A stretch of 64,000 nucleotides of DNA from Escherichia phage wV7. Made by a program: the position numbers and the translations under genes. The DNA is taken from sequence record NC_019505.1, one strand, 5' to 3'. Shown in pieces: positions 29,458 through 39,498 of this stretch. Within the stretch, counting starts at the first letter, position 1. Each line of letters starts with the position of its first letter. The notes below the pieces were generated by a model. The model worked only from the letters and a program-made list of their open reading frames with translations, did not search any database and had not been told where the DNA came from.

Positions 29458-29787
29458 TCAATTAGAAAATAAATTTATCCAAGATTGTTCTTTAATTAAA
29501 AATGGCTCAGAATCATATGCCATTAAACTTTGGGTGATTAGTCCTTTAAAAGGTCCATCAATAAATTCCATGGTAAAATATGGAATTTTATTCATTAACT
29601 GCGCGTTAGGAGCAGTGCACAAAACTCTGCATCCTTTGAATACGCCTTTTTGTAATTTGTATTGCTTGGGATAAAATTCGCTCAAAATGTTATTATTTGC
29701 CAAAATTTCAAAATGATTCACCAATTTATTTTTAATAGTTTTTGGCGAAAAATAAAGATATTCGAAAAGCTGTGTGTCTGTCATCAT
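29458..29787 (-). CDS. Hypothetical protein
   Basis: 109-aa ORF. Confidence 0.5.
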
Positions 29788-30374
29788 TGCATTCCAATCA
29801 CAAAAAATTGAGGACGAACTGTTTCACCTGTTTCAGCATTATAGCTTCGACAACAGTGTTGTACCGTTTTAATATGGATATTGTAAATCTTATCCATATC
29901 AGGAGCTTTAATAGGTTCGTCAATTATGTACAAGATACGAGAAAGCGATAACCCACGGAATTTATGACCTTCATTACCGATAAAACTACGGACAGAATCA
30001 GTAAATAAACGGAATCGAATATCATCATTAGAATAACGCGAAAATTCCTTTTTAATGTTATTTGCAGAAATTTTAGCGTAAGCTGAAGTATTAGAAAGAA
30101 CAATAACTGTTCCGCCATCATACAGCCAATTAGCAGCAAAGTTAGTCACAGCAATTGATTTACCGGATTGACGTCCACCATCTATACGAAGTGTGCAGTA
30201 CTGTTTGAGCACATCTTCCATTGGTGGAAGATAATCATTCTTACAAATTTCTTCTACTCTAGCATCAGAATGGTGTGTAAAAGCATTCATCAGGGATAGA
30301 TAAGGACCAGTTAAAAATGTTCTCATTTTATTCTCTCTAAGTTTGGGCCATTCCGTGGCGCATGAATTGTCCAT
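29784..30374 (-). CDS. Small P-loop NTPase of unknown function
   Basis: 196 aa; Walker A GGRQSGKS and Walker B-like ILYIIDE. Confidence 0.55.
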   Translation of the reverse strand: MDNSCATEWPKLRENKMRTFLTGPYLSLMNAFTHHSDARVEEICKNDYLPPMEDVLKQYCTLRIDGGRQSGKSIAVTNFAANWLYDGGTVIVLSNTSAYAKISANNIKKEFSRYSNDDIRFRLFTDSVRSFIGNEGHKFRGLSLSRILYIIDEPIKAPDMDKIYNIHIKTVQHCCRSYNAETGETVRPQFFVIGMQ

Positions 30375-30467
30375 TTCTGTATTTACCCATTACCGCACTT
30401 GGGCTCGACCTTATCACAGGTTGGCGGGAATCCCTCACAGAATCATGAGGTCCAGGTTGTTCCCATA

Positions 30468-30941
30468 TTATTTGAACGATTTAACGTACTGAATAGAACC
30501 CTTACTATTCACAAAGGCAATTTTACCATTTTTATTATACATGGTAGCAGTACGCTGATAACCATAGGTTTGTTTACCAGATTGATAACCAACTAATGCA
30601 AAATTATCTTCACCCATTTTATTCTGTTTAGCGCGAATGCGTTCATGACCATGTGCCATAAGAACCTTAGCATCACCAGTTGCAATGGATCGACGAGTTT
30701 TTTCATCTTCAACTGCATTAACAAAGTCGTCAAATGAATCAAATTTAGCATGAGATTTATTATACAATTTTCCATCTACTGCATAATTATATCCCTGTAC
30801 ATCCATCTCAACTTCTGTACCATCATCCAATACAGCAGTAATTTTTTGACCTTTTTTAAATTTCAAAAGATCAGTAAAAGATTCAGCAATAATTTGAGAA
30901 TTAATAGCTGCTTCAGTGATAAATTCTTGATATGTTTTCAT
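30468..30941 (-). CDS. Internal head protein-like, with capsid targeting sequence
   Basis: 157 aa; N-terminus MKTYQEFITEAA is the T4 internal-protein leader with an L/I-x-E prohead-protease site; sits directly downstream of denV. Confidence 0.7.
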   Translation of the reverse strand: MKTYQEFITEAAINSQIIAESFTDLLKFKKGQKITAVLDDGTEVEMDVQGYNYAVDGKLYNKSHAKFDSFDDFVNAVEDEKTRRSIATGDAKVLMAHGHERIRAKQNKMGEDNFALVGYQSGKQTYGYQRTATMYNKNGKIAFVNSKGSIQYVKSFK

Positions 30942-30950
30942 GGGTTTCCT

Positions 30951-31367
30951 TTAAATGTAAATATTTTTACCGTAATACTTATACCAATGCGGTTTCATTA
31001 AAATTTTTTCATCAAGTCGTTGTTGACTCAATTTAATAGCTGATTTGCATGGATTATAATCATTTTTCCATTCTATTGGAATATCGCTGATGTCAGGAAC
31101 TTCAGTATCTTTTATACTGAACCCGCGTTTTAAGCATTCCGTTATAATGTCTAATTGACGCTTTCGCAAAAATTCTAACTTATCGTAAAAGAACGTAACA
31201 TGACCAGAACCTAAAATAAACTCGGAAGATATTTTAAAATCTTTAACGCGCTTACCGTTTGCCACATGCTTACGAACTATACCAAAAACACGCGGCAATT
31301 CACGGTATTCTGCGATTAAATGTTGATCAGCAAGTTCAGATACTAAAGTCAAATTAATACGAGTCAT
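30951..31367 (-). CDS. denV: Endonuclease V (pyrimidine dimer DNA glycosylase)
   Basis: 138 aa; [17 protein letters not shown]...WYKYYGK closely matches recalled T4 endo V with several substitutions. Confidence 0.9.
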
Positions 31368-31392
31368 TTTATCCCTCCAAGTAACTGTGAAT

Positions 31393-31422
31393 ATACTATC
31401 ACAATTCTAGGAGAAAGTAAAC
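31393..31422 (-). promoter_or_regulatory. T4-type early promoter of denV
   Basis: GTTTAC -35 and TGaTAGTAT extended -10. Confidence 0.55.
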
Positions 31423-31426
31423 AACT

Positions 31427-32395
<969 letters not shown>

Positions 32396-37194: not shown

Positions 37195-37270
37195 TGGTCG
37201 AGGCAGTAGGGATCGAACCTACGACCTAGGACTTAGAAGGTCCTTGCTCTTCCTTCTGAGCTATGCCCCG
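37195..37270 (-). tRNA. tRNA-Arg (anticodon UCU), CCA encoded
   Basis: Hand-folded cloverleaf: acceptor CGGGGCA/TGCCTCG, anticodon loop CTTCTAA, T-loop TTCGATC. Confidence 0.8.
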
Positions 37271-37274
37271 TAAT

Positions 37275-37350
37275 TGGGGTGACCGATGGGAGTCGAACCC
37301 ATGACTACGAGAATCACAATCTCGAGTTCTACCAACTGAACTACGGTCAC
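37275..37350 (-). tRNA. tRNA-His (anticodon GUG), CCA encoded
   Basis: Acceptor GTGACCG/CGGTCAC, anticodon stem CGAGA/TCTCG with loop TTGTGAT, discriminator C; no encoded G-1. Confidence 0.7.
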
Positions 37351-37464
37351 ATTAATACCTACTCCAACAATCAAGATGTCTTCACACGAAATTAAGAGAA
37401 GAGTGATCAGTTCAACCCCTATAATCGCGTCAAGTAGATATTAATGTGACAGTTGTCACAAATT

Positions 37465-37539
37465 TGGCGGACGTGATAGGATTCGAACCTATAACCAATC
37501 GCTTAACAGGCGATCGCTCTGCCATTGAGCTACACATCC
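37465..37539 (-). tRNA. tRNA-Asn (anticodon GUU), CCA encoded
   Basis: Acceptor GGATGTG/CACGTCC (one G-U), anticodon loop CTGTTAA, T-loop TTCGAAT. Confidence 0.75.
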
Positions 37540-37543
37540 AAAT

Positions 37544-37630
37544 TGGTGGGGAGTGGTGGAGTCGAACCACCCGAGTCGCAATGACAATGAATTTACAGTC
37601 CACACCGCTACCTCTACGGGATAACTCCCC
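37544..37630 (-). tRNA. tRNA-Tyr (anticodon GUA), long variable arm, CCA encoded
   Basis: Acceptor GGGGAGT/ACTCCCC, anticodon loop CTGTAAA, variable-arm hairpin GTC-ATTGC-GAC, T-loop TTCGACT. Confidence 0.7.
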
Positions 37631-37642
37631 TAATTCATAATT

Positions 37643-37717
37643 TGGTGGCCCTGGGTGGAATTGAACCACCATCTGGCGATTATGAGTCGCTTGCTTGAAC
37701 CTTCCAGCTACAGGGCC
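37643..37717 (-). tRNA. tRNA with CAU anticodon (Met, or Ile by T4 analogy), CCA encoded
   Basis: Acceptor GGCCCTG/CAGGGCC, anticodon loop CTCATAA, T-loop TTCAATT. Confidence 0.75.
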
Positions 37718-37718
37718 T

Positions 37719-37794
37719 TGGTGCTGATTGACGGAATCGAACCGCCGACCTTCTCATTACAAGTGAGTTGCTCTACCTACTGAGCTAAATCAGC
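37719..37794 (-). tRNA. tRNA-Thr (anticodon UGU), CCA encoded
   Basis: Acceptor GCTGATT/AATCAGC, anticodon loop CTTGTAA, T-loop TTCGATT. Confidence 0.8.
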
Positions 37795-37799
37795 AAAAC

Positions 37800-37889
37800 T
37801 GGCGGAGGTGATAGGATTCGAACCTATGAATCGCCGGAGCGACTGCCGGTTTTCAAGACCGGTGCATTCAACCACTCTGCCACACCTCC
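37800..37889 (-). tRNA. tRNA-Ser (anticodon UGA), long variable arm, CCA encoded
   Basis: Acceptor GGAGGTG/CACCTCC, anticodon loop CTTGAAA, long variable arm, T-loop TTCGAAT. Confidence 0.8.
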
Positions 37890-37891
37890 AG

Positions 37892-37965
37892 TCTCCATAC
37901 AAGGATTTGAACCTTGGACCTCCTGATCCCAAATCAGGCGCTCTACCAAACTGAGCTACACGGAG
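37892..37965 (-). tRNA. tRNA-Pro (anticodon UGG), CCA not encoded
   Basis: Acceptor CTCCGTG/TATGGAG (two G-U), anticodon loop TTTGGGA, T-loop TTCAAAT; followed by CT then next tRNA. Confidence 0.75.
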
Positions 37966-37975
37966 TAAATTAAAT

Positions 37976-38049
<74 letters not shown>

Positions 38050-38054
38050 AAATT

Positions 38055-38141
38055 TGGTGCGAGAAGTGGGACTCGAACCCACAAGGAAATCATTCCGCAG
38101 CATTTTAAGTGCTGTGCCTTTACCAATTTGACCATTCTCGC
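38055..38141 (-). tRNA. tRNA-Leu (anticodon UAA), long variable arm, CCA encoded
   Basis: Acceptor GCGAGAA/TTCTCGC, anticodon stem CAGCA/TGCTG with loop CTTAAAA, T-loop TTCGAGT. Confidence 0.8.
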
Positions 38142-38142
38142 G

Positions 38143-38215
38143 CTGGGAATAAAGGACTCGAACCTTTGCATCTAGCAGTCAAAGTGCTATGCCTTACCAA
38201 CTTGGCTAATTCCCA
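38143..38215 (-). tRNA. tRNA-Gln (anticodon UUG), CCA not encoded
   Basis: Acceptor TGGGAAT/ATTCCCA, anticodon stem TAGCA/TGCTA with loop CTTTGAC, T-loop TTCGAGT; abuts tRNA-Leu. Confidence 0.8.
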
Positions 38216-39240: not shown

Positions 39241-39498
39241 TTATTTTAAATCTTCTAATCGTTTCTTCATCTTAGAACCATTTTTAGCGATTTCTCCTGC
39301 GTCAGAGCATAATGCTAAAAGTGCTTTAACTTTAGTTTGGTCTCCTTTAAAAGACGAAGGATCGACTGCAGCAGCAAGTTCTTTAATACGAGAGAAAAGA
39401 CGCTCAGCTTCAGCTAAAGCCATTCCAAGCTTTACTTCCATACCATGAGAAGATTCAGTGATAATAGTTTCTGTAGCAAACTCTTTATAAGTTTTCAT
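39241..39498 (-). CDS. Internal head protein-like (ipI position), with capsid targeting sequence
   Basis: 85 aa; N-terminus MKTYKEFATETI; own early promoter; adjacent to 57B as in T4. Confidence 0.7.
   Translation of the reverse strand: MKTYKEFATETIITESSHGMEVKLGMALAEAERLFSRIKELAAAVDPSSFKGDQTKVKALLALCSDAGEIAKNGSKMKKRLEDLK

Follow-up and report, generated by a model that had tools for sequence, protein, structure and literature searches.

The window, a 64,000-nucleotide stretch from Escherichia phage wV7 (NC_019505.1), contains on its minus strand an open reading frame (ORF) of 157 codons plus stop, whose product begins MKTYQEFITEAAINSQIIAE. The gene order on this strand is nudE, e, denV, the ORF and vs.8, and no internal-protein (IP) gene was found between e and denV in the window. 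The features of the locus, together with a second leader-bearing gene elsewhere in the window, are as follows.

32414-31959, minus strand: nudE (Pfam, RB51 annotation)
31948..31955, minus strand: TATAAATA late-promoter consensus upstream of e (scan for exact copies)
31427..31921, minus strand: e, the T4-type lysozyme gene that bounds the e-proximal IP locus on the left (Pfam Phage_lysozyme, RB51 annotation)
31372..31416, minus strand: stem-loop in the spacer between e and denV, set within a GTTTAC... early-promoter-like element (dG of the fold -18.9 kcal/mol; z -4.0)
30951..31367, minus strand: denV, endonuclease V (pyrimidine dimer glycosylase), the upstream neighbour of the ORF (Pfam Pyr_excise, E 2e-13; RB51 annotation)
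30944..30969, minus strand: 26-nt ip 5' leader with Shine-Dalgarno sequence, TAAAAATATTTACATTTAAAGGAAAC, which precedes T4 ipII in identical form
30468..30941, minus strand: Ip4 coding sequence, 157 aa plus stop (ORF; 100% nucleotide identity to RB51/RB68 Ip4; DUF7412; PHROG 3155; dN/dS)
30912..30941, minus strand: capsid targeting sequence MKTYQEFITE, codons 1-10, ending in a gp21-type site, I-T-E (motif scan, family alignment)
30882..30890, minus strand: candidate second gp21 site, I-A-E, codons 18-20 (motif scan)
30337..30467, minus strand: spacer after Ip4, the decayed 5' part of a T4-type vs.8 and the right-hand cassette junction (alignment with T4)
29784..30326, minus strand: vs.8, which closes the locus on the right, 180 aa long in RB51 (RB51 annotation, T4 alignment, PHROG 1488)
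39241..39498, minus strand: Ip5 of RB51, 85 aa, MKTYKEFATE..., at the ipI locus (six-frame leader scan)

The ORF is Ip4 (also called ipIV), an already named T-even internal head protein of T2/RB51-type phages. Its nucleotide sequence is 100% identical to that of Ip4 in RB51 and RB68, and likewise in O157 typing phage 7 and others; the RB51 record annotates the identical gene as Ip4, "internal virion protein; similar to T2, RB70 Ip4". Annotations as Ip4 or ipIV exist for RB51, T2, PP01, PST and K3, and the same gene is present in RB68 and RB14. In all of these phages it has the same length, leader and locus, with no substantive difference from the gene in the window. The Pfam family DUF7412 (PF24183) aligns residues 1-157 with profile positions 1-158 (E 9e-96, 318.7 bits, cut-off 27), and PHROG 3155 ("internal virion protein") matches end to end (E 1e-101, 338.5 bits). 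Among predicted viral structures, only UniProt Q38388, "Ip4 [Enterobacteria phage K3]", matches significantly, with 98% protein identity. Compared with the orthologues of T2, a Salmonella phage and a Klebsiella phage, dN/dS is 0.02-0.16 (0.02 for T2), and the ORF is therefore a functional gene and not a chance reading frame. The first-pass annotation of this DNA had recognised nothing in the mature part of the protein. The novelty this implied does not survive: the protein is the long-named Ip4, it matches both families over its full length, and its gene has this placement in about 158 sequenced phages. Public annotations, and the T-even internal-protein literature since the 1990s, already cover the gene together with its name, family and shifting position. 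Ip4 is one of the interchangeable IPs of T-even phages.

The leader MKTYQEFITE, correctly read at first pass as a capsid targeting sequence, is one substitution away from MKTYQEFIAE of T4 IPII and IPIII (9/10 identical), and T4 ipII and ipIII share their first 23 coding nucleotides exactly with Ip4 of the window. Residues M1, K2, F7 and E10 are nearly invariant in the Ip4 family alignment. The prohead protease gp21 of T4 cleaves at the consensus Leu/Ile-x-Glu, and the I-T-E at residues 8-10 of Ip4 fits this consensus. The I-A-E at residues 18-20 is a possible second gp21 cleavage point in the window phage; a hydrophobic-x-E sequence is kept at this position in all close homologues, and E20 is nearly invariant in the family. 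The gene had been counted as the second one in the window to encode such a leader, which agrees with our six-frame scan: the only other leader-bearing ORF is Ip5. This gene has its own GTTTAC/stem-loop element upstream, and an inhibitor of McrBC with such a leader sits at the same ipI locus in phage Bas37 (preprint 10.1101/2025.11.20.689424).

Beyond the leader the resemblance to other IPs fades. In BLASTP comparisons with Ip4, the similarity of T4 IPIII is confined to residues 1-13 and that of Ip5 from the window ends at residue 14. The alignment with T4 IPII runs to residue 70, at 31% identity, but it is gapped and weak and the first 11 residues carry most of it. Ip4 was considered as an orthologue of T4 IPII, IPIII or Ip5 and rejected, as there is no convincing similarity past the leader. 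By these alignments Ip4 forms a family of its own, with nothing but the leader in common with T4 IPII and IPIII. The likeness in other respects is close: the T4 genes have the same kind of capsid targeting sequence, 5' leader and ribosome-binding site, they lie in the same locus between e and vs.8 with promoter/stem-loop flanks of the same kind, and their products are presumed to take the same route from the prohead core through gp21 cleavage to ejection. They differ in that their position relative to denV is reversed. T4 IPI*, the inhibitor of the GmrSD of E. coli CT596, is the functional model of the class, being a leader-bearing, processed and injected small protein, as Ip4 is predicted to be. 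Unlike Ip4, it is encoded at the other IP locus, where the window phage has Ip5, and it has 76 residues when mature.

Mature Ip4 after Glu10 would comprise 147 residues (16.5 kDa, pI 9.1-9.3) with 11.6% Lys, 8.2% Gly and 5.4% Tyr, in line with the Gly/Lys/Tyr-rich part of about 145 residues described at first pass. An AlphaFold2 model, built on an alignment enlarged by three distant relatives, has a pLDDT of 84.5 and a pTM of 0.77; the leader is disordered, and residues 21-157 mostly score >84. The modelled elements are a β-hairpin (residues 33-55), three helices (70-103) and a four-stranded sheet (111-156). The fold resembles only small barrels, which are often nucleic-acid-binding (Sm/Hfq, L19, Tudor, CarD, WYL). 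No sequence or fold similarity was found to the known type IV inhibitors IPI*, IPII, IPIII and Bas37_0260, and a sequence search of the PDB gave no match. The residues conserved throughout the family are Gly, Lys, Asn, Gln, Tyr and Thr. We also considered a catalytic motif comprising His64 and His99 (in HAKF and HGH motifs) and rejected it. These histidines of the close members are not conserved in distant ones, and so nothing points to Ip4 being an enzyme.

The gene is widespread. Megablast found it in 318 phage records, and tblastn in 469 records from four or more Tevenvirinae genera. Within Tequatrovirus the nucleotide identity is 95-100%, as is the identity in tblastn (T2 protein, 99.4%; the "ipIV" of PP01 included). 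Identities in tblastn are about 71% in Gelderlandvirus (Salmonella), about 68-70% in Jiaodavirus (Klebsiella) and 61% in Serratia phage SP1. As a protein family Ip4 is small, with about 17 clusters in 5.8 billion proteins, and a profile search of that set gave no further relatives. An exhaustive HMM search of 1.8 billion representatives matched seven proteins, all of them family members or fragments except for one repeat protein, which matched profile positions 35-54 alone. Two of the proteins we collected are unusual. P0014, from Klebsiella phage vB_Kpn_AM_K5 (184 aa), is an Ip4 whose C-terminal third is divergent, probably through a frameshift or sequencing error; P0018 (100 aa) has only the last 35 residues of Ip4, following unrelated sequence.

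Distant members of the family carry the variant leader MNF[EK][QD]FLNES. One of them (L007 139-1215, JGI metagenome contig Ga0485749_006685) is 35% identical to Ip4 and has the leader MNFKDFLNES. Directly upstream of it is a denV-family gene (Pfam Pyr_excise, 27.8 bits, cut-off 23), and downstream of it comes a metallophosphatase-like gene. The adjacency of denV and Ip4 thus recurs far outside Tequatrovirus, which may be coincidence or old synteny or, as the weaker possibility, reflect a functional link rather than a shared neighbourhood. On another contig (L008 88-180, Logan contig ERR14707364_71623), a hairpin terminator and then two exact TATAAATA late-promoter boxes lie immediately upstream of a relative with 36% identity, as expected of a head protein.

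In the window Ip4 follows the stop codon of denV by 9 nt. The scan of the window gave neither a promoter nor a terminator of its own, in that there is no exact late promoter directly upstream and no terminator-like site on the coding strand; the box at 31948..31955 is the only exact copy of TATAAATA upstream of Ip4 in its transcription unit. No terminator-like site was found on the minus strand between this box and Ip4. Given the short gap, the sole late-promoter box before e and the lack of such a site, Ip4 is probably read early from the element upstream of denV and late from the late promoter of e. denV and Ip4 are probably co-transcribed as part of an e-denV-Ip4 unit, for which the early-promoter/stem-loop element and the late promoter of e would both serve.

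The place of the gene is best understood from the locus as a whole. In T-even phages the IP genes vary at two loci, one beside e and the other beside 57B/ipI, both flanked by promoter/stem-loop elements. Repoila et al. 1994, as cited in PMC2839356, noted these elements, and Arbiol et al. 2010 (PMC2839356) treat them as counterparts of PeSLs (promoter plus stem-loop cassettes). Ip4 lies in the e-proximal locus, between e and vs.8, with flanks shared with T4 and T2. The T4 order is nudE-e-ipIII-ipII-denV-vs.8, and the observation at first pass that the leader-bearing gene of the window lies after denV, and not between e and denV, is borne out. In the T4 record (H114) Ip4 is absent, gene e being the one match by megablast, and the locus alignment shows ipIII and ipII in its stead. 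We aligned the locus of the window with those of T4, T2, a Salmonella phage and a Klebsiella phage. No gene has changed its orientation, and the alignments show loss and gain of cassettes at shared short sequences, so that a simple inversion of gene order was rejected. The refutation named at first pass, clear orthology to IPII or IPIII with such an inversion, therefore fails, and the first-pass view that the ORF is neither of these genes is supported.

On the left, the junction of the Ip4 cassette is within the 3' end of denV, where the ip leader at 30944..30969 overlaps the last codons and the stop of that gene; Shigella phage A2 shows the same junction. Since the junction falls at this shared leader, it used leader homology and not the stem-loop element. 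The C-terminus of denV reads ...YGKNIYI in the window and ...YGKAIYA in T4, the last codons (30951-30969) deriving from the ip leader; the WYKYY segment is intact. Further upstream, the e-denV spacer is by alignment a chimera of T4 spacers, and the 5' half of its 31372..31416 element matches the e-ipIII spacer of T4 and the e-Ip4 spacer of T2. None of 200 shuffled sequences folded as stably as this stem-loop. The chimeric spacer and the stem-loop are consistent with cassette gain and loss by recombination between such elements. As in the PeSLs of T4-type phages, a strong stem-loop inside an early-promoter-like sequence flanks the cassettes; Ip4 differs from those systems in having no element of its own, denV being placed between the promoter/stem-loop element and the Ip4 ribosome-binding site.

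On the right-hand side, T2 and the window share the sequence that comes after the Ip4 stop, which in T4 follows denV. This sequence is a remnant of vs.8 (30337..30467) in which the T4 ATG has become GTG, a TAT has become a TAG stop and 8 nt are deleted. With its 5' end decayed, vs.8 starts about 40 codons later than in T4 (180 aa in RB51 vs 219 aa in T4). A 196-aa ORF from the ATG at 30374 reads the remnant in another frame, and this is probably not a real start. The spacer is richer in G+C, and we considered a structured RNA or tRNA there; it holds no tRNA, its fold has a z of +1.15, and it is the decayed vs.8 5' end. A cluster of 11 tRNA genes (Arg, His, Asn, Tyr, Met/CAT, Thr, Ser, Pro, Gly, Leu, Gln) lies elsewhere in the window, at 37195-38215 on the minus strand. 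T4 has fewer, namely eight.

Other phages show further arrangements. In T2, Ip4 stands directly after e, with the e-ipIII spacer of T4 and in the exact place of ipIII; in T2, RB33 and RB5 it follows e directly because denV is absent there. Yersinia phage PST has e-ipIII-ipIV, and Shigella phage A2 has e-denV-[105-aa leader-bearing gene]-Ip4. Some of the Tequatrovirus genomes, A2 included, have this additional gene (L009 1281-1598, 105 aa, MKTYKEFIAESAAGQRVEGG...) in that place. Many phages have e-denV without Ip4. In Klebsiella phage ValerieMcCarty03 the order is e-Ip4-ipII-ipIII-...-denV; here Ip4, an IPII orthologue and an IPIII gene stand in tandem between e and denV (Jiaodavirus; L011 5927-8767), so that three IP families coexist in one array outside Tequatrovirus. 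The order seen in the window is common: a query spanning the denV-Ip4 junction was covered to at least 80% in 158 of the 316 records carrying the Ip4 5' end, or about half of Ip4-carrying Tequatrovirus genomes. Judged from these alignments, the order after denV looks like one arrangement of an IP locus that is often reshuffled. Recombination at shared short sequences, namely the promoter/stem-loop element and the roughly 50 nt of ip leader plus targeting codons, would generate such arrangements, in keeping with the mechanism that PMC2839356 describes for the IP loci.

Evidence that Ip4 is a virion protein comes from an orthologue. In a proteomic study of CsCl-purified virions of the Jiaodavirus phages ValerieMcCarty03/04 (PMC13119998), Table 3 assigns 66/66 peptide-spectrum matches to gp127/119, named "internal virion protein". 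In these phages the neighbour of e, VMC263_127, encodes a protein 70% identical to Ip4, and we infer that gp127 is VMC263_127 from the numbering, the neighbouring lysozyme and the protein sequence printed in the supplement. In the supplementary data (PMC13119998), none of the 66 matches of the ValerieMcCarty04 orthologue falls on residues 1-12, and thus the leader is removed in the Klebsiella protein. Three of the 66 are the peptide LATVGVMTESVGSNLLK, residues 13-29, which spans the second candidate site, here M-T-E; this site is therefore incompletely cut in that orthologue. We consider it very probable that Ip4 is a packaged and processed internal protein, the step to the window phage being made from an orthologue of 70% identity. 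Residues 1-10 would carry the protein into the scaffolding core of the prohead, gp21 would cut off the leader after Glu10, and a second cut after Glu20 is possible. A basic protein of ~16.5 kDa (pI about 9.1) would be left amid the packed DNA and, by analogy with T4 IPI-III, would be ejected with it into the host cell.

What Ip4 may do in the cell is suggested by its class. Three T4 proteins each block a different GmrSD, Ip1 that of E. coli CT596, IPII that of ECOR21 and IPIII that of ECOR17, with no cross-protection (PMC12373910). In phage Bas37 the ipI locus encodes a leader-bearing protein, Bas37_0260, that acts as an inhibitor of McrBC (preprint 10.1101/2025.11.20.689424). Our survey thus found four leader-bearing IPs that have been characterised, and each of them acts against type IV restriction. 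We found no literature on the function of Ip4. In the same study that characterised the T4 proteins, ip4-10 were expressed against a panel of active GmrSD variants and gave no reproducible inhibition (PMC12373910, section 10, Suppl. Fig. 9); the panel consisted of GmrSD variants, and its result would hold for the gene of the window if the ip4 expressed there has the same sequence.

Since Ip4 would arrive before any phage gene is expressed, its job is most likely to disarm a host nuclease. We propose that this would be a nuclease attacking the glucosyl-hydroxymethylcytosine DNA of the phage, and that the target may be a type IV, modification-dependent restriction enzyme of a further subtype. 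By analogy with the characterised IPs, some specific anti-defence role appears reasonably probable, whereas a block of type IV restriction in particular is a tentative proposal that we would not back at even confidence. Our best explanation overall, to which we lean only a little, is that Ip4 is a packaged, gp21-processed and injected inhibitor of a type IV enzyme, whose gene came to its place by cassette shuffling. Against this explanation stand the negative GmrSD panel, the absence of an exact late promoter directly upstream and the fact that the virion data come from an orthologue. The strong conservation in Tequatrovirus (95-100% nucleotide identity, dN/dS 0.02 vs T2) argues against an inhibitor in a fast arms race. 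A further, somewhat doubtful reading is that Ip4 in its mature form has a new fold and specifically disables a host defence for which there is no known phage inhibitor, either a further subtype of modification-dependent nuclease or another early-acting system.

The pI of 9.1-9.3 and Lys content of mature Ip4, together with its resemblance to small barrels, would also suit a general, basic, DNA-associated filler without a dedicated host target, which would neutralise charge, condense the genome or aid its ejection, or coat the DNA unspecifically. Internal-protein lysines do touch DNA phosphates in T4 heads (review PMC3012670), and both the strong conservation within the genus and the GmrSD result for ip4 agree with such a role. 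However, IP genes are dispensable and differ between phages, T4 itself being without Ip4, and all leader-bearing IPs characterised so far are specific inhibitors; we regard a general role as unlikely. We give similarly little credence to the view that Ip4 is injected to inhibit or modify another early function of the host, be it a defence outside type IV, such as a DNA-end nuclease or an infection sensor, or a housekeeping protein. Ip4 would enter the cell by the route that the known inhibitors take, its fold is novel, the negative GmrSD panel leaves room for other targets, and the Bas37 protein has widened the range of targets from GmrSD to McrBC; but no positive evidence indicates a particular target of this kind, and the precedents so far are all modification-dependent nucleases. 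Finally, it is highly improbable that the leader is a relic and Ip4 an ordinary, unpackaged cytoplasmic early protein co-expressed with denV, as its position without a promoter element directly after an early/middle gene and the denV-family neighbour of a distant relative might suggest, because the orthologue is abundant in purified virions with its leader gone, which largely refutes this reading, because the leader and Glu10 are kept under selection across genera, and because distant relatives have late promoters.

If Ip4 is indeed a new fold directed at a defence of the kind proposed above, its target would partly account for the differing host ranges of T2/RB51-type and T4-type phages. Few IPs without an assigned target are as widespread as Ip4, which is present in about 470 phage genomes, those of T2 and of many therapeutic candidates among them. 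Knowledge of the target would yield a further inhibitor-defence pair and help to predict the host range of T2-like phages.
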